The translations under genes were made by a program, and so were the position numbers. A model generated the notes under the pieces. It searched no databases. It was not told the DNA's origin and saw nothing but the letters and a program-made list of their open reading frames with translations. Positions 35,771 to 52,306 of a DNA stretch of 64,000 bases are shown piece by piece. Source of the stretch: Minisyncoccota bacterium (GTDB taxonomy: Bacteria > Patescibacteriota > Minisyncoccia > Phycocordibacterales > UBA9973). Numbering within the stretch: the stretch's first letter is position 1; every line of letters begins with the position of its first letter. The stretch lies in assembly GCA_039915165.1 (NCBI GenBank), contig JBDSNU010000007.1, positions 113,812 to 177,811 on the forward strand. Direction: 5' to 3'.

Positions 35771-36337
35771 CTAGTTGTATTCGTTCATAATGTCCTGTGT
35801 GCTTTTGAACGGCAGTGCCTCGATGACCTTAATCGCTTTGCCTATTCCCTGATCGCGGAGCTCGTCTTCGAAGGGGGCGAAGTTTGAAAGCAAGAATGTT
35901 TCGAAACCATTTGGTGGCAAAATTTTTGATTGTAATTCTTCATGAACAGGACGAACACCAATACGGATACGTAAGAAATCTTTTGTACCAAGGTGATCGA
36001 TAACAGACTGCACACCATTGTGCCCACCAGCACCGCGCCCGAATGAACATTTAATTTCGCCAAGCGGAATATCGATGTCATCATAGACAACAACAACGGG
36101 TCCATTATGTTGCTTCACCAACATTGCTGCTGCCAAACCAGAATTATTCATAAAGGTAGTAGGTTTTGCGAGCAACAACTCTGTGCCAAAAGATGCAATC
36201 TCCGAATGAAAAAGTTTTCTCTCATTAAAATGCAGTCCTTCTAATGCTGCCATTACACTAAGTGTCATGAAGCCAACATTGTGGCGGTTGCGGACGTACG
36301 TAGTTCCAGGGTTGCCGAGCCCAATAACGATATTCAT
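35771..36337 (-). CDS. pth: Peptidyl-tRNA hydrolase.
   Basis: The N-terminus MNIVIGLGNPGTTYVRNRHNVGF matches the Pth signature. Confidence 0.9.
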   Translation of the reverse strand: MNIVIGLGNPGTTYVRNRHNVGFMTLSVMAALEGLHFNERKLFHSEIASFGTELLLAKPTTFMNNSGLAAAMLVKQHNGPVVVVYDDIDIPLGEIKCSFGRGAGGHNGVQSVIDHLGTKDFLRIRIGVRPVHEELQSKILPPNGFETFLLSNFAPFEDELRDQGIGKAIKVIEALPFKSTQDIMNEYN

Positions 36338-41563: not shown

Positions 41564-41635
41564 TTCCCCTGTAGCTCAGCGGTAGAGCGGTCGCCTGTTA
41601 AGCGATTGGCCGTAAGTTCGAATCTTACCGGGGGA
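41564..41635 (+). tRNA. tRNA-Asn (GTT).
   Basis: Acceptor stem TCCCCTG/CGGGGGA. D arm GCTC-AGCGGTA-GAGC. Anticodon arm GTCGC-CTGTTAA-GCGAT. T arm GTAAG-TTCGAAT-CTTAC. Confidence 0.75.
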
Positions 41636-41698
41636 GCTAAGTGTTTATCGTGAAAGTGACCTATCCGCGTCCGGATAAGCCATTTTCTAGCGAGTTAA

Positions 41699-41759
41699 GT
41701 AACACACCAAAAAAGCCACAATGACTTAACCCACAATTGTGGCTTTTTTGGTGTGTTAC
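41699..41759. terminator. 24-bp perfect-stem hairpin between tRNA-Asn and the ABC/IS chimeric gene.
   Basis: gtaacacaccaaaaaagccacaat-(13 nt)-attgtggcttttttggtgtgttac. Confidence 0.7.
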
Positions 41760-41762
41760 TTT

Positions 41763-42602
41763 TTAATCAGGCAAGAATCCACCTGACTGCATTTTCCATA
41801 AATGAGCATACTTTCCATTCTGTTGAAGCAATTCTTCATGCGTACCATCCTCAACAATTTTTCCACCTTCCACAAATACAATACGGTCCATTGATTGAAG
41901 TGTCGAGAGTCGGTGAGCAATAGCAATGACTGTCTTCCCTTTCATTAGAATGGTTAATGCTTCTTGTACCTTTCCCTCACTTTCGCTATCAAGGGCACTC
42001 GTTGCTTCATCGAGAATAAATAGCGGGCTGTTCTTAAGTATGGCTCGAGCAATTGCAATACGCTGTCGTTGTCCACCCGAAAGCTTCACGCCCCGTTCAC
42101 CGACAACAGTGTTGTAGCCTTTTGGCAATGTTGAAATAAAGTCATCGGCATAGGCCATCTTTCCTGCTTGTTCGACTACTTCTCTTGAAGCCTCGGATGA
42201 GCCGTAGCGAATGTTTTCAGCAATCGTCGTATGGAAGAGCGATGTATCCTGAGAAATAAAAGAAATATGAGAACGGAGAGAATCTTGGGTCATTGTTGTT
42301 ATATCCACATCATTAATTTTTATTGTTCCACTTTGTGGGTCAAAGAACCTCAATAAAAGATTTATCGCCGTAGTCTTTCCCGCGCCGCTCAAGCTTGGCT
42401 TGAAGCCGCATAGCAGATGAACGTGGTCACCGTCGGTGCCGATGGCTTCGAACTCGATGTCGTAGCGTTCCTGGATGGAGCGGGAAATCTCCAGAATCGC
42501 TCTGTCTATCCGTGGCGTCAGCAGCGCCTTGCGGTACTTTAACGGAAAGACTATGTGATAGTGGGTGTCGTACGTGCTGTGGTTTGCGCTCTTGTTCGCC
42601 AT
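41763..42602 (-). pseudogene. Chimeric ORF. An IS200/IS605 TnpA N-terminal fragment (about 64 aa) is fused in frame to the C-terminal nucleotide-binding domain of an ABC exporter whose TMD is missing.
   Basis: The N-terminus HYHIVFPLKYRKALL...GDHVHLL matches the TnpA HuH motif. Walker A is LSGAGKTT, the signature is LSGGQRQRIAIARA, Walker B is ILDEATSALD and the H-loop is IAHRLST. GC content changes sharply at about 42405. Confidence 0.7.
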
Positions 42603-42700
42603 GGTTCGAGTCTATATGAAAACCTTAGGTTTTCATACTTTCCGAAAAGGAAACCCCGCAGCAAGCTGCGGGGAATTTGGGGGTTTAAAGACTAATATAA
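42410..42700 (-). mobile_element. IS200/IS605-family remnant: left-end hairpin plus the 5' part of tnpA.
   Basis: The subterminal hairpin ccccgcagc-aa-gctgcgggg lies upstream of the tnpA start. The segment is high-GC relative to its flanks. Confidence 0.55.
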
Positions 42701-42815
42701 CATCTAAATCTTTTACTTCCTGATATCTATTTTTTACCTCATCAAATAGTTCTTTGTATCTTTCAAAACCAACATTCATAGATTAATTATTATATAAATT
42801 GTACGTCTTAATGTA

Positions 42816-43103
42816 TTAGGACAGGTGAACCAATCGCTTATCCGTGATGGTTTTATGAAGCTTGTCGCGCTCGATTGTTCGCGCTATTTCAGGTATTCCT
42901 AGAGCTGAGGATGGAATATCACAAATCATATTACCGTGAAGATCAATGATCGCTCCTTTTTGAACAAGCGTGGTCTCGTTCCAAAAAGAATCGCCAAGAT
43001 TAAATTTTTGCATGATTCGCAGACCGTTACCATTCTTGTCCTGAAACACTGAAGACGTTTCTGTGCCATGCAGCGTCCGTTCCACTGCGCCTCCAACAGG
43101 CAC
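42816..43103 (-). pseudogene. Orphan C-terminal fragment of a paralog of the 43367-43996 gene (low GC).
   Basis: It shares the SSVFQ[DG]K[ND]G segment and a 28-bp near-identical nucleotide patch with the upstream gene. Confidence 0.45.
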
Positions 43104-43366
43104 GCGCTGTATTTTATGCGGGAGCGTCGTACTCCACTACTGCATGACACCAGATATATTTTTTTAATATGTATCCTTCACGCACCACCCTGACGCAGAC
43201 CTCGACCTGCGCCAATCCCGATGTGATCGGATAGAAACCTTCGCCCGAAGCCGTGACCGCAGGCATGTCAAAAATCTCGGCTTTAGTATATCAAAATAAA
43301 ATTAAACGCAAAAAGAGCCCAAGGTACAAAGTATCCAAGGGCTCAATAGTTTTAGAGGCAAAATCC

Positions 43367-43996
43367 TCAAGGTTTTTCTGCGAGAAACATCCAGTCAACG
43401 TCAGCAAACCAGTGGCCATCAACAACCACCAGGCTAAGCCTGCGCCTGCCATCGTCACGACTGACGCACAGGAAGCAACGGCGACCATCCTTGCCCTGAA
43501 ACACTGAACTTTCAGCGTTTTCTGCGGCGACAAAGTCTTTGCCGGCAAGTTCTGCGGGAAGCTTGTTTTCGGGAACGGCAGCCATGGCACCGGTTAAGTA
43601 GTTTGGTGCACTTTTGCATAAGGTCAGGCCGAACTTGTTCACGTACGCTTCCTCGTCGCCACTGTCCACGTTTTCGGTGACAGGGACGAAGTAGATGCGC
43701 TTTGCGCCAGCTGCTTCCAGTAACGGAATGCGGTCGTGATCATCGCTGATCCAATCGTACACGCTGTCGTAGTTTCCTTTCTCGATCGCCAGAGCGATGT
43801 TATTAATCGGATCTACAACAACAGAATACAAATCCTGAATCTTCGCTTCGCGGTCGGCCAATAGCTTGCCGAGGTTTTTCAGATCGTCTTCGGTGAGGAA
43901 TTCGATCGCTTTGTCGGAACCTTTGGCGTCCGTGATTCCTTGCCTCACCAAGACTGCGTAGTCTGAGTCGGCAATGATAAGAATTGTTTCGGGCAT
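43367..43996 (-). CDS. Hypothetical protein in the high-GC island. The probable start is MPETILIIADSDYAV at 43996; the ORF track extends it to 44134.
   Basis: 210-aa ORF at about 52% GC. No confident family assignment. Confidence 0.4.
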   Translation of the reverse strand: MPETILIIADSDYAVLVRQGITDAKGSDKAIEFLTEDDLKNLGKLLADREAKIQDLYSVVVDPINNIALAIEKGNYDSVYDWISDDHDRIPLLEAAGAKRIYFVPVTENVDSGDEEAYVNKFGLTLCKSAPNYLTGAMAAVPENKLPAELAGKDFVAAENAESSVFQGKDGRRCFLCVSRDDGRRRLSLVVVDGHWFADVDWMFLAEKP

Positions 43997-44155
43997 TAGT
44001 ATGTTTTTACAGTGTTTTGAAAAGAAATACGTTTTTAGTATCATAGCATGAATTGAGTATAAAGTCAATGATTTAAAGGCTATGCCCAAAAAGCCTCGTT
44101 TTTTCGCCACGACTACACATTTTCCCCGATCCAAGCTAAGGTACCCAAACCTTCC

Positions 44156-44623
44156 TTAACAAAGCCCCATGCCTCCATTCTCCCTCACCCAGTCCACCCA
44201 CACGTCAAAGTCCCTGTTATTCTCCATGATCGCAAGCGACCTGATGACCGCCATCGCAAACGCATCGGCCAGGTCGTCATGTCCCTCGATGCCAAATCCG
44301 GTCAGTTGGCTGACGAGCTCCTCCGCGCCATGCCTCGGGAACTGGATAATTCCTGTCTGTATGTAGTGCGAGGTCATGGCAAGGCGCGAGCGCTTGTCGG
44401 TCGTGTTCTTCACGCCTTCCACCTGTACTCCTGATCCAGAGAGCTGGTCCGCATAGATTTCCTGAAAGCCGTTCGACTCGATCACCACCAACGGTTCCAT
44501 GTCATACGGCAGGTTCTTTGCGAGCATCCGTATCGTCCTCGTTGTTTCGGGATACGGCATTCGCTTGTTGATTGGATTTGGCAGGATGTACATTTTGATG
44601 TCCCTGTCCTTCTGATGCAGCAC
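44156..44623 (-). pseudogene. Phage terminase large subunit C-terminal nuclease domain fragment (ATPase domain missing).
   Basis: The C-terminal HDDLADAFAMAV motif and RNaseH-like nuclease domain pattern are present. Only 155 aa remain. Confidence 0.55.
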
Positions 44624-44680
44624 GCCCGTGACGACTGCCGAACAGTGCGGTCTTTGCCGATACTCAACAGCAAATCAGCG

Positions 44681-45085
44681 CTAGGATTCTTCATGATGTT
44701 CTTCGGACACAATGCCCGCCAATTTCAATGCCTGCTCGACCAATACCTTTTGTTCCGGAGACATCTCGTGAATGGTTTCCAATCTTCCATCAATCTGTAC
44801 CTTTGTTTTGTAGTCGCCATGGTGGTGCTTGAGCCAGTACATGATCGCAGCCAGATTACGATCCTTGACCGCGCCGATGAGCTGGGACTCTGCCACGTCA
44901 TTGATGAGCAAGCGTCCTTCGCTGACTGCCTGGTCGGCTGATGTGGCGAATGCCTCGTCCTCCGCTTTCCATCGGTAAAAAGTTGCTCGTGAGATATCGA
45001 GCTTTTCGCAGGCGATCTGAACAATCGGTGTTTTCCGCAGTTGCTCCAGAAGCAGAGCTTTGTTTTCTTCGGTGGTTTTATTCAT
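44681..45085 (-). CDS. Phage terminase small subunit-like HTH protein.
   Basis: IACEKLDISRATFYRWKAEDEAF is the HTH typical of terminase small subunits. The gene sits directly upstream of the terminase large fragment. Confidence 0.55.
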   Translation of the reverse strand: MNKTTEENKALLLEQLRKTPIVQIACEKLDISRATFYRWKAEDEAFATSADQAVSEGRLLINDVAESQLIGAVKDRNLAAIMYWLKHHHGDYKTKVQIDGRLETIHEMSPEQKVLVEQALKLAGIVSEEHHEES

Positions 45086-45638
45086 AGAGCAATGTGGGCT
45101 GTATCTTCGTCAGTTTCTCAAATCGATCCATGACGGTCTGGCAGTATTCAATATCAAGCTCGACTCCAAGACACACTCGGTGGGTTTGTTCGCACGCAAT
45201 GAGTGTTGAACCGCTCCCAAGAAAGCAGTCGTAGACAACTTCATTAATATTTGTGCTGTTGAGAATGAGATTCCGCAGAAGCGGTATCGGCTTCATGGTC
45301 GGGTGCAGACTGCTTTTCGTCGGGCGAGGATAGAAGAGATCGCACCAGACGAAGACATGCGTATCCATCTTTGAAATCTCCAAGCCGTTGCCGATTATGT
45401 TCTTCAGAAATGTTTTGTACTCATCGTCGGGCTTGCTGTCATCGACTGACCCGCCATAGTGCTGCCTGCGTCCGACGCCCTTGTTGTAGTCGAGAGAGAT
45501 GTTGTACGGCGGGTCGAAGTACAGCATGGAGACGTTCACGCAGGTGCTTTCTTTTTGTTCGAGGCGAACCCCGGCAATGCTGTTACCGGGGTTGGGAGCA
45601 AATAAAAAAGCTCCATCCTTTACCCAACCTCGTTGCAA
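45078..45638 (-). pseudogene. Phage-type N6-adenine/N4-cytosine DNA methyltransferase (beta-class order: DPPY before FxGxG), probably N-terminally truncated.
   Basis: Motif IV is LYFDPPY and motif I is CFLGSGSTLIA. High GC. Confidence 0.6.
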
Positions 45639-45639
45639 G

Positions 45640-45877
45640 AGAGCTGGAAAAATCAGGAATGGTTATAGAACGACTGGAGCCATGGAAAGGCAAAGTTACA
45701 TTCAAAGATGTGGGGGCCCTTGTATTTATGCTCAAGGCTGTGCCATGGACTGTAGGTGATTTCAGTGTCATTAAACACCGAGAGGTATTAGAAAAGCTAA
45801 AAAAAGATATTGATAAGAACGGAAAATTAACTTTTGCTGAGAGTAAGTATTTAATAATTGCAAAGAAAAAAGTCTAG
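45640..45877 (+). pseudogene. C-terminal remnant of a native class I SAM-dependent methyltransferase, cut by the high-GC insertion.
   Basis: The low-GC tail ...ERLEPWKGKVTFKDVGALVFMLKAVPWTVGDFSV resembles the C-termini of type-11 methyltransferases. The upstream part of the ORF is out of context and high-GC. Confidence 0.45.
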
Positions 45878-45895
45878 TTTCCTGCTAGTAAAGTC

Positions 45896-45923
45896 TTTCG
45901 AACATCGTCCAGGGTTCGGAGCA
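45896..45923. repeat. Copy 1 of a 27-28 nt imperfect-palindromic direct repeat.
   Basis: tttcgaacatcgtccagggttcggagca. Confidence 0.85.
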
Positions 45924-46240
45924 CTTGACAATGTATTTAAAATACATATTGTTTATATGGGACTCAAAAACAGTTAGTATATTTAAAGAACTTAATGGCA
46001 TGTTAATCTCGACATGGTCATTAATTAGTAAGGCGGTTCTTACCCTTTTGCCAAAAGTATGCTCAATCAATGAGCGAAATTGAAAATAAAGGATTCTTTA
46101 GGCGCCTCTTAGAGAATTTCTTTGAGATTAAAGAAATTAAAATAGATAAGGAGAATAATCTGTCCTGTCTATTCCCTCGGTTACCACAAAGCCCACCTCT
46201 CACAATGTGATGTTAAGGGCTTTTTTATTTGACCAAGCAG

Positions 46241-46268
46241 TTTCGAACATCGTCCAGCGTTCGGAGCA
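46241..46268. repeat. Copy 2 of the same repeat.
   Basis: tttcgaacatcgtccagcgttcggagca. Confidence 0.85.
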
Positions 46269-46593
46269 TTTGAGCGAAAACAAAAGTACCCTTCACTGGG
46301 TATTTTTGCTTTTCCGAAAATGCGAACCCCGGGAAGTGGTTACCGTGGGAGTAATAAAAAAACCACCCGTCGTATATCATCGAATCGGGTGGTTTAGAAA
46401 AGAATTATCCCCTACTACTTACGGGAAATTGTACTGGTTTTCCAGGTACTACACTGGCTGAAGTTTTTTTATCTTTTGCAGCTTTTTGTAGCTCGTAAAA
46501 ATTTACCGCATCTTTTCCAGTTAGGATCGGTGTCTCTTTAAGTGGTTTTGCCATAACTTTTAACTATTTTCATTACTTTAACACAAAAGTTGT

Positions 46594-46620
46594 TTTCGAA
46601 CATCGTCCAGCGTTCGGAGT
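46594..46620. repeat. Copy 3 of the same repeat.
   Basis: tttcgaacatcgtccagcgttcggagt. Confidence 0.85.
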
Positions 46621-46669
46621 AAATAAATCACTCATAAGAAATAAGTGGGCCTTTGCTATACTAGTAATA

Positions 46670-47242
46670 ATGATGTCACAATATGAGGTCTTAGCATTTA
46701 AAAATTCTAAAAGTTGGCGACAGTGGCTCTTGAAGTCCCATAGCAATACTGAGGGGGTCTGGCTGCGAATATATAAAAAGGCTTCCGACATCTCTTCGGT
46801 TTCCTATGCAGAAGCCCTTGATGATGCTTTATGTTTTGGCTGGATTGATGGTCAAAAGAAAAAATATGACGACGTATCCTATATTCAGAAATTTACACCA
46901 CGACGAGCACGCAGTATGTGGTCAAAGCGCAATATAGAACATATTGAAAGACTAACTAATGATAAGCTGATGACCTCAGCAGGAATTACTGAGGTGGAAA
47001 AAGCTAAAGCCGATGGTCGCTGGGAAGAAGCGTATGACTCGCCTAGTAATATGATGGTACCTGACGATTTCATTACTGCAGTAAAGGCAGACAAAAAAGC
47101 TTTTGCGAATTACCAATTACTTAAAAAATCAGACTTATACAGTATTGGTTTTAAGCTACAGACTGCGAAAAAAGCAGAGGCCCGAGAAAGAAGATTCCTC
47201 TCTTTACTTGAAAAGTTACATAAAGGCGAATCATTACATTAG
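46670..47242 (+). CDS. YdeI/OmpD-associated (OmdA) family protein.
   Basis: The pattern W..WL..H......W........SYAEALDDALCFGWIDG is characteristic of this family. Confidence 0.6.
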   Translation: MMSQYEVLAFKNSKSWRQWLLKSHSNTEGVWLRIYKKASDISSVSYAEALDDALCFGWIDGQKKKYDDVSYIQKFTPRRARSMWSKRNIEHIERLTNDKLMTSAGITEVEKAKADGRWEEAYDSPSNMMVPDDFITAVKADKKAFANYQLLKKSDLYSIGFKLQTAKKAEARERRFLSLLEKLHKGESLH

Positions 47243-47317
47243 AACGTTATTGTTTTTTCAATACTGTCCTACCAAAAATAGCATTGTCTTTTACCCCAAA
47301 GCTACTATAATTTAATC

Positions 47318-47689
47318 ATGACAAAAGGAACATATGTAGACGGGTTTGTAATACCAATAAAGACGAAAGATGTTGCGGCTTATAAAAAGATGGCGGTATG
47401 GGGTGCAAAGATGTGGAAAAAACATGGGGCACTTGAATACTTCGAATGCATAGCTGATGATTTAAGTGTGGTAAACGGTATGGGTCAGGGCTTTGAAAAG
47501 ATGGCTAAACTCAAGGAAGATGAGACTGTTATATTCTCTTTTATTGTTTATAAGTCAAAAGCACAGCGTGATCAAATAAATAAAAAAGTGATGACAGATC
47601 CTACTATGAAAGATTTTGACGAAAAATCTATGCCAGTTGATATGAAGCGTTTCGTAATGGGAGGTTTTAAGATTTTAGTTAAAAACTAA
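47318..47689 (+). CDS. DUF1428 family protein.
   Basis: GTYVDGFVIPIKTKDVAAYKKMA...HGALEY...DQINKKVMTDP matches DUF1428. Confidence 0.55.
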   Translation: MTKGTYVDGFVIPIKTKDVAAYKKMAVWGAKMWKKHGALEYFECIADDLSVVNGMGQGFEKMAKLKEDETVIFSFIVYKSKAQRDQINKKVMTDPTMKDFDEKSMPVDMKRFVMGGFKILVKN

Positions 47690-47720
47690 AGTTAGCTATT
47701 CAAACAAACATATTTTTAAA

Positions 47721-48176
47721 ATGAAAACTTTACTTGATACCTCGACCAGAGATGAACTAATTGCCAGAATAAGAAATGTTAACGAGCGCAGTGCTGCGCA
47801 ATGGGGCAAAATGAATGTGTCTCAAATGTTGAAGCACTGCACAATTGCCGATGAGTTGTACTTAGGTAAAACAACATACAAGCAAAACTTTTTTGGGAAA
47901 TTGTTTGGTCAAATGGCAATGAAGAATTTATTAAAAGATGAAAAGCCGTTGGGTCGCAATACCCCTACTATCCCCCAGCTTAAAAACTTGGAGAGTGACA
48001 GCAACATCGAAGTCGACCAAAATAGACTGATTGATTCTGTACAAGAATACGAGCATTTCTCAAGGCAACTCATAGTGCACCCTTTTTTCGGCAACATGAC
48101 TCGAGAACAAATAGGAATGATGGCGTATAAACATATTGATCACCATCTCAGACAGTTCAACGCGTGGTGTTTTTAG
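47721..48176 (+). CDS. DUF1569 (DinB_2-like) family protein.
   Basis: WGKMNVSQMLKHC...HPFFGNMT...KHIDHHLRQF is present. Confidence 0.55.
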   Translation: MKTLLDTSTRDELIARIRNVNERSAAQWGKMNVSQMLKHCTIADELYLGKTTYKQNFFGKLFGQMAMKNLLKDEKPLGRNTPTIPQLKNLESDSNIEVDQNRLIDSVQEYEHFSRQLIVHPFFGNMTREQIGMMAYKHIDHHLRQFNAWCF

Positions 48177-48240
48177 ACTTTGGACAAAATAAAAAACCTC
48201 TCACTATATGAGGGGTTTTAAATTATGATACTATTATCCT

Positions 48241-48681
48241 ATGGCTACAATAAATCCTTGGATCAACTTTAACGGCAATGCTGAAGAAGCATTCACATTT
48301 TATAAATCAATATTTGGTGGTGAATGTACAAAAATTATTCGCTTCAAAGATCTCGCAAGTACTGAATTTCCAGTACCAGAAACAGAGGCGGAAAAAATAA
48401 TGCAGATCTCATTACCCATCGGTACGGGCAGCGTACTGATAGCAAATGATGTGCCTGCATTTATGGGAACAGTAAGTGAACAAGAAAATCGCAGTAAAAT
48501 TTTAGTTACTGCCGATAGTAAAGAAGAAGCAGATGCTATATTCAACGGTCTTTCAGAGGGAGCAGAAGTAGAAGGCCCAATCGGTGAAAGTCCTTGGGGT
48601 AGCTATGCTGGAACACTAAGAGATAAGTACGGTATCGAATGGGTAGTAGAATTTTCAGCTATTGATCAACGTCCTGAGTAA
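48241..48681 (+). CDS. VOC/glyoxalase-fold PhnB-like protein.
   Basis: The N-terminus INPWINFNGNAEEAFTFYKSIFGG and the C-terminus GPIGESPWGSYAGTLRDKYGIEWVV match the PhnB-like family. Confidence 0.6.
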   Translation: MATINPWINFNGNAEEAFTFYKSIFGGECTKIIRFKDLASTEFPVPETEAEKIMQISLPIGTGSVLIANDVPAFMGTVSEQENRSKILVTADSKEEADAIFNGLSEGAEVEGPIGESPWGSYAGTLRDKYGIEWVVEFSAIDQRPE

Positions 48682-48730
48682 AATAAAAAGCCAGAATAAA
48701 TTCTGACTTAATAAAAACTCGAGATCAATA

Positions 48731-49027
48731 CTAGCTGGCTTTCATAAAAATTGGCGACATATCCAACGCCCTGTTTATAAAATCGAAGGGCGAGATACCA
48801 AGAGAGGTAGCGAGTAAAATCATCTGCTCGGACTTGGGTCTTTTTTTGCCGTGTAGCATATCCTGAACTTCACCTAACTCAACACTGAGTATTCTGGCAA
48901 AATCATCTGGCGTTTTTTCATTTTCTTTCATAATTTTGCTAAATGACAAGCCAGAACGATTCTGTTGCAGAGGGCATTCTCCAAACAATTTTCCACATAC
49001 CGGGCATTTTTTACTATTCTTTTCCAT
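48731..49027 (-). CDS. Zn-ribbon plus XRE-type HTH small regulator.
   Basis: The N-terminal zinc ribbon is KKCPVCGKLFGECP. The HTH-like segment is ...QMILLATSLGISPFDFI. Confidence 0.45.
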   Translation of the reverse strand: MEKNSKKCPVCGKLFGECPLQQNRSGLSFSKIMKENEKTPDDFARILSVELGEVQDMLHGKKRPKSEQMILLATSLGISPFDFINRALDMSPIFMKAS

Positions 49028-49246
49028 TACTATAGGGGTTTAGTGTAAGATGGTTTTTATATACTGTAAACTGATTAATTCATATTGTCAATATTTGTCG
49101 TTACTTTTTTATCTCCCCTCCTTCATATATACTACCCTCAGCGATAAATCCATCTTTATCACTCCGGCACTCCTGCTTGGTCTGCGACTGGAGCGATGGT
49201 GCGCCCTATAAAGCTGAACGCTTTATCAATAGTTAAAAATACTACT

Positions 49247-49441
49247 ATGTCTGATCTTACTAATTTTAAACACAAGGACTTGAACACTGTTTCCGACGAA
49301 GAGAAAGAGTGGTACAAAGACAGCATGCGCAATTGGCGTAGCTGGGGATCTTGGTTTTCATGGGGCTCACCTGTGGGTCTTGGCATTTGGTTCTTATGCG
49401 TAGCAGGTACCATTTGGATCATCATGCAAGCCTTCCATTAA
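49247..49441 (+). CDS. Small membrane protein. The start is uncertain; the ORF track gives 49196.
   Basis: The C-terminal TM helix is VGLGIWFLCVAGTIWIIM, followed by a hairpin terminator. Confidence 0.3.
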   Translation: MSDLTNFKHKDLNTVSDEEKEWYKDSMRNWRSWGSWFSWGSPVGLGIWFLCVAGTIWIIMQAFH

Positions 49442-49442
49442 T

Positions 49443-49478
49443 AACAAAAAGCGCGGACAGCGTCCGCGCTTTTTGTTA
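49443..49478 (+). terminator. Intrinsic terminator.
   Basis: aacaaaaagcgcggac-agc-gtccgcgctttttgtt. Confidence 0.6.
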
Positions 49479-49494
49479 TAGAATTTTAATTATA

Positions 49495-49857
49495 TTATTT
49501 TTCTTCTTCGTTCAGTTTAACCGCTGCTTCAGGAGTAGAAACGGTTTTGCCCATAAGGAATAACTTGATGATTCCATACGCAACAATCCAATACACTGCC
49601 ATTGCTAAAAGAGTAGTCCATTCAAAAGTACTGCCAGCAACTATGTGAGTATTATGAAATACTGCTAAAAAGGGTGTGGCAAAAATATACGTTATGCCGT
49701 ACACGAATGAGCTAAATCCTGCTGAAGGATTGGCGGCCAAGAGTTTTAATATAAAACGAAAAGCCAACAGTACTTCTACGATTCCTAGAACATACCAGAC
49801 AATCTGAGTACTACGATAAAGGGGTTTTGTGCTTGAAGCACTATAAGATGAATCCAT
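49495..49857 (-). CDS. Hypothetical multi-TM membrane protein. The start is taken at the internal Met; the ORF runs to 49950.
   Basis: Three or four hydrophobic helices. The upstream part of the ORF overlaps the DUF1059 gene. Confidence 0.35.
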   Translation of the reverse strand: MDSSYSASSTKPLYRSTQIVWYVLGIVEVLLAFRFILKLLAANPSAGFSSFVYGITYIFATPFLAVFHNTHIVAGSTFEWTTLLAMAVYWIVAYGIIKLFLMGKTVSTPEAAVKLNEEEK

Positions 49858-49894
49858 ATATTTTTTAAGATTATTAATACTATTAAAGTATATA

Positions 49895-50113
49895 CTATTT
49901 ATCTTCCGGAGTTGCATCCCAATCTTTGTGGAACTTTTCAGACCATGCAACCATCATAGGATGGTCTGCTGGCATTGCTTTGATATCTGCTGCCATTTCA
50001 GGATGAACCGCTTCGATATGCTGCATCCCTACTGCAATCATTTCTTCACTGGTTTCAGCTGACATTGAGTGGTCACACATTCCGCCCATTTGAGCACAAG
50101 TCATTGTTTTCAT
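49895..50113 (-). CDS. DUF1059 family small protein.
   Basis: MKTMTCAQMGGMCDHSMSAETSEEMIAVGMQHIEAVHP is the characteristic DUF1059 N-terminus. Confidence 0.6.
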   Translation of the reverse strand: MKTMTCAQMGGMCDHSMSAETSEEMIAVGMQHIEAVHPEMAADIKAMPADHPMMVAWSEKFHKDWDATPEDK

Positions 50114-50267
50114 AGAAAATTTTTATTTAAGAATAATATAACCATGATAGCATAGCGTTGAATATTTTATACACAGTCAGCATTTGACTCCTCTTCTCAA
50201 AGGCGTAGGATTAATAGAGACTCGTTCTTAAATAAAAAAGTATTATCAATAGTAAACAATCACAATC

Positions 50268-50417
50268 ATGCTTAATACAATTGCAATCATCTTAATTATT
50301 TTATGGCTTGTAGGATTTCTCGCATTTCCTGCAATTGGTGGAATTATTCATATCTTACTCGTTATCGCAGTAATCATGATAATTGTCCGCATCATCCAAG
50401 GACAAAGACCTCTGTAA
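50268..50417 (+). CDS. lmo0937-family small membrane protein (49 aa). It is not in the ORF track because it is shorter than 60 aa.
   Basis: Hand translation gives MLNTIAIILIILWLVGFLAFPAIGGIIHILLVIAVIMIIVRIIQGQRPL, which matches the lmo0937 family consensus. Confidence 0.6.
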   Translation: MLNTIAIILIILWLVGFLAFPAIGGIIHILLVIAVIMIIVRIIQGQRPL

Positions 50418-50444
50418 TAATTATCAGTAATTTATTTTCCATTT

Positions 50445-50633
50445 ATGACAACTATTATAAATACCCCCAATGGCAATAATGACAGCGGTAGCGGTCTTGG
50501 CATCATAATTGGTATCATTCTTATTGTTGTTATTGGTATCCTGGTATATCGTTACGGATTTCGATCACACTCAACAAATATAAATGTTAACGTCCCAACT
50601 CCCACAGTTAACACGGGCGGAGCGGCACAATAA
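50445..50633 (+). CDS. Small single-TM protein.
   Basis: 62 aa with a central hydrophobic helix GLGIIIGIILIVVIGILVY. Confidence 0.35.
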   Translation: MTTIINTPNGNNDSGSGLGIIIGIILIVVIGILVYRYGFRSHSTNINVNVPTPTVNTGGAAQ

Positions 50634-50665
50634 CATTTCTTATATGTATTAAAAAAGTCACATTT

Positions 50666-51769
50666 GTGGCTTTTTTAGTTTCTAAATCCACTACGTATGC
50701 GTGGTATAATTTACTTATGAAAAATTCAACAAAAACTCTTTTAGTTATTATTGCAGTAATCGCAATAGTAGTAATAACACTTTTTATTACACGAACTACT
50801 ACATCACCAAAAGCTGAAATTCTAACAGCTGAACAACCAACTTCAATTATTACAGGCTTTGCATGGCGATATGAAAAAGGCAGTAACGATGCTGATGGAT
50901 TGCCGCAAACGCAAATATTTTTAGACACAACACATACAGACGGAAAAGTAACTTCAATAAAAATTGATGAGGTTCAAGGCAGCTGTAATACTATTGACGC
51001 AGCAAAAGATGATAAGGATATTGTTTCTGGTACTACTAAAATCCAATGCTATGCAGCTGGCATGGGAGAATGGTACAAAATCGTCAAAGCAGAAAAAGCT
51101 TATGAAGTCCGCCGTAAGTATTTCGAGGAAACAAGTCCAGATATGACTCCTACCAACTATCAATACGAAACAATTGTCACTATTCCAAATAATGAGTCTG
51201 TAATTGCGGCACCTACAATATCGTCTGATAAAAAAGATATATTGAAAGATGGAAAAGTTTTATTGAGCGTTGATGATTCTGATATTTTTGAATATGTTAA
51301 AAAAGCAGAAAATGGGTTATGCGATAGTTCAAATATAAATACGACACCTACTCGAAAATCTTTTTGTACAAGTAAAACGACATTTAGAGCAGAAGCTTTT
51401 TTTACTAAAATAGTTGTATCTCCTACTAACAATGCAATTGGTTTTACTATACAAACTACCGAGCTATCACCCGACTCAGTTGCAGGTATTTTCCTCCGAT
51501 TAAATACAACGTATAAGGTACATCTATTAACTAACTATTATTTAGGAAACGATTTTTCTGCCTTTGCTCCATCAGGAAGTCGCTTTGCCTTTACAGAAAA
51601 ATGCTTCGAAGGAAATTGTGGTTTTACCATCATGACAACAAATACACTTACCTCTGTAAAACATTTCGGCAACTCAGAAACTGGGCCCAATTATGTATTT
51701 GTGAGATGGATTAATGATTCAACTATTGAATATAAGCTCGACGGTACGACAAAGCAAACTTCGATCTAG
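50666..51769 (+). CDS. Hypothetical TM-anchored extracellular protein. The probable start is MKNSTK at 50718.
   Basis: An N-terminal TM anchor is present. No family was recognised. Confidence 0.35.
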   Translation: MAFLVSKSTTYAWYNLLMKNSTKTLLVIIAVIAIVVITLFITRTTTSPKAEILTAEQPTSIITGFAWRYEKGSNDADGLPQTQIFLDTTHTDGKVTSIKIDEVQGSCNTIDAAKDDKDIVSGTTKIQCYAAGMGEWYKIVKAEKAYEVRRKYFEETSPDMTPTNYQYETIVTIPNNESVIAAPTISSDKKDILKDGKVLLSVDDSDIFEYVKKAENGLCDSSNINTTPTRKSFCTSKTTFRAEAFFTKIVVSPTNNAIGFTIQTTELSPDSVAGIFLRLNTTYKVHLLTNYYLGNDFSAFAPSGSRFAFTEKCFEGNCGFTIMTTNTLTSVKHFGNSETGPNYVFVRWINDSTIEYKLDGTTKQTSI

Positions 51770-51790
51770 AGCATTAGATTAATTGCTTTA

Positions 51791-52306
51791 TTGCGGTACA
51801 ATGATGATATTACTTATAGCAATTACCATATGACCAACAAAGAATTTTTTATCGAAACACTAAAAGAAGAAGCGCCAAAATTTAAAAAGGTTATTGAAGC
51901 TTTGAATGAAGATGATCATTCATACAAAGTTCATGAGAAGTCTCGCGAAGCTGGCAATCTTGCTGGACAGCTAGCAATTCAATGGAAAGGTATTTCGGGC
52001 ATCGCAACAACTGGTCGCCCTAATTTTGATGTTCATGCGATGTCAGGCCAAACTAAAAGCGATATGCTTGAAAATTTTGATAGTGGTATAGAGCAGCTGT
52101 ATAAAGATCTCGAAAATATAACAGACGAAGAATGGGAAAACGGTGCCGCTGGCTTTAGTGAAGTAATGAACGAAAAGAAATATCACCTGGCATGGATATT
52201 CTTGTTTGATGCTATCCACCACCGCGGCCAACTTTCTACTTACCTTCGCGGCATGGGGGCAATCGTTCCTTCAATCTATGGACCTTCTGCTGACATGCAA
52301 AACTAG
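51791..52306 (+). CDS. DinB/YfiT-like (DinB_2 superfamily) metal-dependent protein. The probable start is at 51833.
   Basis: A C-terminal HHRGQ motif is present on a four-helix bundle pattern. Confidence 0.55.
   Translation: MRYNDDITYSNYHMTNKEFFIETLKEEAPKFKKVIEALNEDDHSYKVHEKSREAGNLAGQLAIQWKGISGIATTGRPNFDVHAMSGQTKSDMLENFDSGIEQLYKDLENITDEEWENGAAGFSEVMNEKKYHLAWIFLFDAIHHRGQLSTYLRGMGAIVPSIYGPSADMQN

Follow-up and report, generated by a model that had tools for sequence, protein, structure and literature searches.

IS-associated gene truncation and fusion open reading frames (ORFs) are commonplace. The mobile element considered here belongs to the same group as IS200 of Salmonella, whose left end has a terminator against incoming transcription and a second hairpin for translational repression; a Y125F variant of the IS200 transposase is listed as catalytically dead (PMC4513863). 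In addition, a preprint reports that the 5' end of the Salmonella IS200 tnpA transcript is processed into a regulatory small RNA (bioRxiv 10.1101/2024.06.26.600842). For the second gene family involved, the ABCB-type exporters MsbA and Sav1866, solved structures serve as reference. Here, we describe a locus in a 64-kb stretch of DNA (hereafter the window, meaning the whole stretch that was analysed), in which the 5' part of an IS200-type transposase gene reads in frame into the 3' part of an ABCB/MsbA-type half-transporter gene. Each parent is a member of a well-known family, and the fusion itself is a single occurrence; we regard the chimera as a real but ordinary pseudogene-like relic, which is probably recent.

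Anatomy of the chimeric ORF

The first-pass annotation of the window had proposed an in-frame TnpA-ABC chimera of 840 nt, and this proposal was borne out by Pfam (Table 1). The encoded protein of 279 residues matches Y1_Tnp (PF01797) at residues 10-72 (E 1.4e-12; 48.2 bits against a cutoff of 23; profile positions 2-64 of 121) and ABC_tran (PF00005) at residues 72-202 (E 1.4e-26; profile positions 20-137 of 137). The chimera is an object that exists, at the coordinates of Table 1, far beyond chance. The passage from a high-GC TnpA segment into a low-GC nucleotide-binding domain (NBD), which had been noticed earlier, was also found: the tnpA part (42386-42602) has 55% G+C and the ABC part 43%, compared with 39.6% for the whole window, and GC3 drops abruptly at the junction, from ~8-11 per 12 codons to ~2-7 per 12 past residues 73-85.

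Table 1 Features of the chimeric ORF and its surroundings. Positions are those of the window unless a relative is named.
Feature	Position	Strand	Basis
tRNA-Asn(GTT)	41565..41637	+	ARAGORN; Rfam tRNA, 70 bits
26-bp perfect inverted repeat, 13-nt loop	41697..41761	.	Self-blast, arms 41697-41722 and 41736-41761
Chimeric ORF, 840 nt including stop, 279 aa, ATG start	41763..42602	-	ORF list; Pfam
ABCB/MsbA-type half-transporter 3' remnant: NBD, from within Walker A to stop	41763..42381	-	Alignments to P0002, Sav1866 and MsbA
Junction, 6-nt overlap CGGCGC, within codons S72-G73-A74	42382..42387	-	blastn to L087 and L003
IS200-type tnpA 5' remnant, codons 1-72	42388..42602	-	Y1_Tnp profile; 81% aa identity to L087 tnpA
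IS200-type left end, intact, directly 5' of ATG	42603..42689	-	Fold; alignments to L005/L006/L087-L090
Left-end hairpin 3	42615-42637	-	DNA fold
Left-end hairpin 2	42639-42653	-	DNA fold
Left-end hairpin 1, terminator-like	42654-42673	-	DNA fold
TTTAAA(C) boundary, conserved	42684-42689	-	IS alignments
Prophage debris, ~50% G+C	44156..45638	-	Pfam and PHROGs, terminal profile portions only
Terminase large-subunit (TerL) C-terminal fragment	44156-44623	-	Pfam/PHROGs
Small-terminase-like (TerS-like) HTH protein	44681-45085	-	Pfam/PHROGs
N6/N4 DNA methyltransferase fragment	45078-45638	-	Pfam/PHROGs
Group I introns in tRNA-Asn of relatives	L011:7329-7598; L014:7331-7600; L016:6981-7290; L022:3746-4087		Rfam RF00028

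Two Logan assemblies, made from different runs, contain an identical protein of 279 residues (P0001). The contig from SRR26386601 matches the window over 20.8 kb at 100% identity and spans the chimeric ORF together with its flanks, and the contig from SRR26386600 matches over 17.1 kb with only 2 differences, which lie at the adjacent bases 36098-36099, far from the ORF. Since the window exceeds both Logan contigs in length, it derives from yet another assembly. Misassembly at the junction, named in the first-pass annotation as grounds for discarding the fusion, is very unlikely, because two Logan assemblies that were made separately show the same junction. Among the 120 matches listed from a collection of 5.8 billion proteins, P0001 is the only one that unites PF01797 and PF00005.

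The assignment of the N-terminal part to the IS200/IS605 TnpA family stood, with a Pfam match above the cutoff and annotated tnpA genes among the hits, and its length had to be revised from 64 to ~72 residues, i.e. by ~8 codons. In the protein collection, these 72 residues matched IS200/IS605 TnpA proteins at 74-80% identity; a tblastn search of plasmids with the same part retrieved annotated tnpA genes, e.g. of Legionella longbeachae at 54%, and a search of plasmid records with the DNA of the IS fragment gave zero matches. The HUH motif is kept (H60-V-H62) and aligns with DHIH of the relatives. A metagenome scan with the IS part yielded 80 related loci, the closest of which (L087) is an intact tnpA-only element of ~565 bp composed of a left end, a tnpA gene for 147 residues and the right-end hairpin CCCCGTCGGCTTGCCGCGGGG; by blastn, the window aligns with positions 1415-1721 of this locus from 42689 down to 42382 at 82.8% nucleotide identity. 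Full-length TnpA relatives have 142-147 residues and contain ...LWGGEFWSDGYY..., the WSDGYY region of the catalytic tyrosine. The match of the chimera to them stops at about residue 73, and the C-terminal helix with the catalytic tyrosine is absent from it. What the IS has lost amounts to ~70 C-terminal TnpA residues, including the catalytic-tyrosine motif, plus the right end. Downstream of the chimera, no right-end-type hairpin was detected with the pattern CCCCG..CGGGG, which matches only the left end and one unrelated site on the upstream side (45569-45591), and a self-search of the 64-kb window (E <= 1e-3) revealed no second copy of the IS. Lacking both the WSDGYY region and the right-end hairpin, the IS fragment is neither autonomous nor mobilisable. 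The IS is an undescribed member of the IS200 group.

In the left end, for which one hairpin had been claimed, three were found: the single-stranded DNA fold of 42595-42710 (-) has z = -4.7, none of 200 shuffles folds equally well, and the segment aligns with the left end of intact relatives. Related copies of the IS share these conserved subterminal hairpins, hairpin 1 with a stem that varies from copy to copy on both arms (GCAG/CTGC vs TCGG/CCG[CA]). Upstream of the common TTTAAAC, the flanks diverge in all IS copies; given this divergence and the shared TTTAAAC, the left end found here is complete and forms a normal boundary of insertion at ~42689. Rfam recognised no family in the left end or the 5' UTR, the only hits being tRNA-Asn and sub-threshold noise on the terminator hairpin. 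A 48-aa ORF (42633-42779, -) begins in AT-rich host DNA (MNVGFERYKELFDEVKNRYQEVKDLDVIL...) and runs into the IS left end; it has no family match and may be the 5' stub of a gene interrupted by the IS insertion.

The ABC part had been described as an NBD from Walker A onward. It is indeed an NBD of the MsbA/Sav1866 type that reaches the C-terminus, but its Walker A motif is incomplete. Residues 71-278 of the chimera are 76% identical to residues 168-375 of the relative P0002, and residues 70-272 align with residues 374-576 of 578 in Sav1866 and 377-581 of 582 in MsbA; the NCBIfam family MsbA_lipidA aligns to the ABC half at positions 368-570 of 572, with all NCBIfam scores far under the family cutoffs. 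The Q-loop (SQD117), the signature (LSGGQ174), Walker B (LFILDE194), the D-loop (SALD202) and the H-loop (AHR229) are intact, and the 207 codons of the ABC part contain zero stops or frameshifts. The Walker A consensus G-x4-G-K-[ST] is broken: the chimera reads S70-LSGA-GKTT and the relatives read VGLSGAGKTT, such that Ser70 from the TnpA side stands in place of the first glycine. Altogether, ~370 codons of the ABC gene are gone: those for the complete transmembrane domain, for the strands with which the NBD begins and for the leading glycine of Walker A. In established ABC structures, the segment before residue 374 of Sav1866 and 377 of MsbA includes the aromatic residue of the A-loop and the strand leading into the P-loop; the missing N-terminal piece of the NBD measures ~37 residues by Sav1866 numbering.

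The earlier statement that the transmembrane domain is gone was corroborated, as Pfam gave no match to ABC_membrane (PF00664) in the chimera and tblastn with the N-terminal parts of twelve relatives found nothing credible as a transmembrane-domain remnant within the 64 kb. A search for an intact paralogue of the ABC gene had also been recommended; the self-search at E <= 1e-3 found no second ABC NBD in the window. The closest ABC relatives are annotated as subfamily B fused permease/ATPase proteins. The nearest of them (L003) is 70% identical in DNA, and synonymous sites between it and the ABC part of the chimera are likely saturated. The called proteins of the closest relatives, P0005 (L085:5520-6306) and P0002 (L003:340-912), are likewise short at the N-terminus: the transmembrane domain in L085 extends upstream in another frame, by frameshift or assembly error, and in L003 homology begins just ~75 nt upstream of the called start. 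Two MAFFT alignments (A2, A5) misaligned the two unrelated halves of the chimera.

The variable island next to tRNA-Asn

Between the stop codon of the ABC part and tRNA-Asn lies a perfect inverted repeat, which is likely a bidirectional terminator. The repeat is unusually long for a terminator, and sub-threshold Rfam matches to microRNA precursors in it are hairpin artefacts. With the neighbouring pyruvate kinase gene, 74 genomic loci were retrieved, the nearest of which (77-88% identity) come from metagenome assemblies of Candidatus Nomurabacteria / Paceibacterota (Patescibacteria). The host is an uncultured Nomurabacteria-like bacterium of the Paceibacterota. Gene order is conserved in the relatives from ~30.9 kb of the window to tRNA-Asn, the homology of 21 relatives ends at the 3' end of the tRNA, and the sequence beyond is different in each relative genome; none of the 21 has an ABC NBD or TnpA gene beside tRNA-Asn, with at most 8 kb compared on that side. 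A DinB-family gene, located at 51791-52306 in the window, is found ~600 bp from tRNA-Asn in the relative L015, which implies a variable island of ~10 kb in the window (41640-51790). The chimera is the first gene of this island and adjoins tRNA-Asn.

The window was searched for a direct repeat of the att type that would match the 3' end of tRNA-Asn and mark the limits of the island, with a negative result. A partial copy of this 3' end (TACCGGGGGAGCA) does occur behind the tRNA of the relative L013, a hint that integration in the Nomurabacteria lineage has a hot spot at tRNA-Asn. The orthologous tRNA-Asn(GTT) gene carries a group I intron (Rfam RF00028, 79-88 bits) at position 34/35 in four genomes of related Nomurabacteria/Patescibacteria, whereas the copy of the window is uninterrupted.

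Just upstream of the left end of the IS, the G+C content is ~50% over 43000-45900, and this stretch includes the prophage debris listed in Table 1. The ORF at 45371-45877 (+) had zero matches in Pfam and PHROGs, and the ORFs at 42816-43103 and 43367-44134 had zero family matches. With these truncated mobile-element genes nearby, the chimera sits among decayed mobile-element genes. The methyltransferase fragment contains a second CCCCGG...CCGGGG palindrome (45569-45591), the two pattern matches comparing with 0.08 expected.

Breakpoint, origin and fate of the fusion

The tracts of homology to the two parents overlap at the junction: by blastn, similarity to the IS (L087) covers 42689-42382 and similarity to the ABC gene (L003) covers 42387-41837. 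Alignment to the intact IS and to ABC relatives thus moved the breakpoint, given as ~42405 in the first-pass annotation, by ~20 nt. The shared stretch is 6 nt long by the BLAST bounds and up to 12-13 nt if the codons matched, both lengths being read from relatives that are 83% (IS) and 70% (ABC) identical and are not the exact parents. At the level of the peptide, the crossover is KPSLSGADVV in the closest intact IS, VGLSGAGKTT in the ABC relatives and KPSLSGAGKTT in the chimera. The analysis directly establishes how the chimera is built, from which two families it descends, where the two homologies meet and overlap, which parts are gone, and that the junction is real.

The order of events, the mechanism of deletion and the lack of function are what we infer from these findings. 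In a first step, a tnpA-only IS200-type element of ~565 bp would have inserted at 42689 by normal transposition, in the same orientation as the downstream ABCB/MsbA-type half-transporter gene, whose end adjoins tRNA-Asn. In a second step, a deletion that began at codon ~73 of tnpA and reached the codons for Walker A in the ABC gene would have removed the 3' half of tnpA, the right end of the IS, any DNA between the two genes and ~370 ABC codons. The simplest mechanism for this deletion would be illegitimate recombination across the CGGCGC microhomology, where both genes encode L-S-G-A. Given the 6-nt overlap of the homology tracts, a microhomology deletion would account for the in-frame fusion, the frame being kept because the crossover falls where the two genes specify one and the same peptide; since the open frame is inherited from the parents, it is no evidence of selection. 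A junction made by TnpA was considered and rejected, as the break is inside tnpA and not at an element end.

On these grounds, we hold it to be highly probable that the chimera was left behind by a microhomology deletion and has no function. A recent date for the deletion is suggested by the NBD motifs, which are intact, and by the 55% G+C of the IS part, which is still unameliorated. The intact motifs after Walker A and the open frame of the ABC part could be held against a relic, but they fit retained function and a recent deletion equally.

Decay is also routine in the IS lineage as a whole, as 4 of the 80 metagenomic relatives are internally truncated; 75 are intact elements. At a Candidatus Taylorbacteria locus, only the left end and the first ~84 codons of a related tnpA are present (L007:1815-2167 and the equivalents in L008-L010; 17 contigs from several sources), and in the metagenomic relatives L112 and L094 tnpA breaks off at codons 69 and 86. 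The ends of several independent relics thus fall within ~15 codons of the break described here. In L005 (497-545) and L006, which hold the same element, an insertion of ~45 nt interrupts tnpA and reading resumes in another frame; this decayed copy was found in two different assemblies.

The first-pass annotation had offered two fates for the chimera, a soluble ATPase or a dead relic, of which the second is much better supported. Lacking the catalytic tyrosine and the right end, the chimera cannot transpose DNA, and lacking a membrane domain, it cannot be a transporter. If it were expressed and kept as a soluble ATP-binding protein or as an NBD decoy, the sheet-helix unit of TnpA would have to replace the NBD strands. 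Such a product is compatible with the open frame of 279 codons, with the intact Q-loop, signature, Walker B, D-loop and H-loop and with the identical sequence in two read sets. However, a serine replaces the first P-loop glycine, everything preceding residue 374 of Sav1866 is missing, and, by inspection of the sequence, the distance from the P-loop to the end of the HUH strand of TnpA exceeds that for the native strand by ~5 residues. Without the strands before the P-loop and the A-loop segment, and with the first P-loop glycine replaced, normal ATP binding or hydrolysis is doubtful and, judging from the sequence, unlikely for the product of the chimera. In addition, no sigma-70-like promoter was recognised upstream of the ATG, with the reservation that host promoters may not resemble the sigma-70 consensus, no recognisable Shine-Dalgarno sequence precedes the ATG, and hairpin 1 of the left end scores as a terminator on the coding strand. 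Furthermore, there is no second instance among the matches listed from the 5.8-billion-protein collection, and the two carrier genomes are essentially identical (2 differences in 17 kb), so that no conservation over time is evident. A dead relic is favoured because of the missing NBD strands and P-loop glycine, the repressive hairpins, the lack of a promoter and of a Shine-Dalgarno sequence, and the fragment-rich surroundings; a retained soluble protein is, in our view, improbable.

Quite improbable, too, is a function at the level of RNA, in which the left end and the 5' fragment of tnpA would be kept as a small RNA of the 5'-tnpA type or as a transcription insulator and the fused ORF would be incidental. 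The three left-end hairpins are fully intact and other relics keep the left end and 69-86 codons (L007-L010 in Taylorbacteria; L094 and L112), and such a role, if true, could explain why relics consisting of the left end and ~70-85 codons recur in this bacterial group. Rfam, however, matches no family in the region, relics of the 5' part are a small minority beside 75 intact relatives out of 80, as random decay predicts, and the two genomes that carry the chimera are identical. We therefore attach little weight to the prospect that the relic might not be inert, be it as a soluble P-loop protein in which the TnpA fold would replace NBD strands or as a structured regulatory RNA or insulator formed by the left end and the 5' tnpA segment, on the model of the small RNA of Salmonella IS200. 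Least credible is an assembly or sequencing chimera between the IS of a higher-GC organism and a low-GC host genome: the compositional step at the junction is sharp and the IS fragment has merely ~300 bp, but the identical ORF and flanks occur in the separately assembled contigs of SRR26386601 and SRR26386600, the same low-GC contig continues on either side of the IS fragment, and the left-end boundary is a normal insertion boundary.

Regarded as a relic of a microhomology deletion, the chimera has little significance outside annotation, where the ORF needs a flag as pseudogene or chimeric relic and where the labels 'ABC transporter ATP-binding protein' and 'IS200/IS605 transposase' should be avoided. 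It provides a clean, base-resolved case of a probable microhomology deletion leading to an in-frame gene fusion in an uncultured bacterium with a small genome, and it marks tRNA-Asn as a variable integration spot in the Nomurabacteria lineage. An expressed chimera would amount to a natural experiment with recombined domains, but none of the results points to expression.

Comparison with IS200 elements, ABCB-type exporters and other fusion ORFs

With the IS200 group, represented by Salmonella IS200 and the intact L087, the chimera shares the Y1_Tnp match over 72 residues and the HUH motif, and its left end has the order known from Salmonella IS200, i.e. a terminator-like hairpin and then hairpins abutting the start codon. 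It differs from the intact L087 in that ~300 of ~565 bp are left and that the C-terminal half of TnpA and the right-end hairpin are missing. The Q-loop, LSGGQ, Walker B, D-loop and H-loop are common to the chimera and the ABCB-type exporters MsbA and Sav1866; in contrast to these exporters, the chimera has neither a transmembrane domain nor the early NBD residues, and its first Walker A glycine is replaced. As in other fusion and read-through ORFs from IS decay, of which the same IS lineage offers further examples (P0123 in L112 and P0130 in L007-L010), a truncated transposase gene runs into unrelated sequence. Unlike in IS-decay fusion ORFs, the partner in the chimera is a recognisable gene that is entered in its native frame via the shared LSGA.
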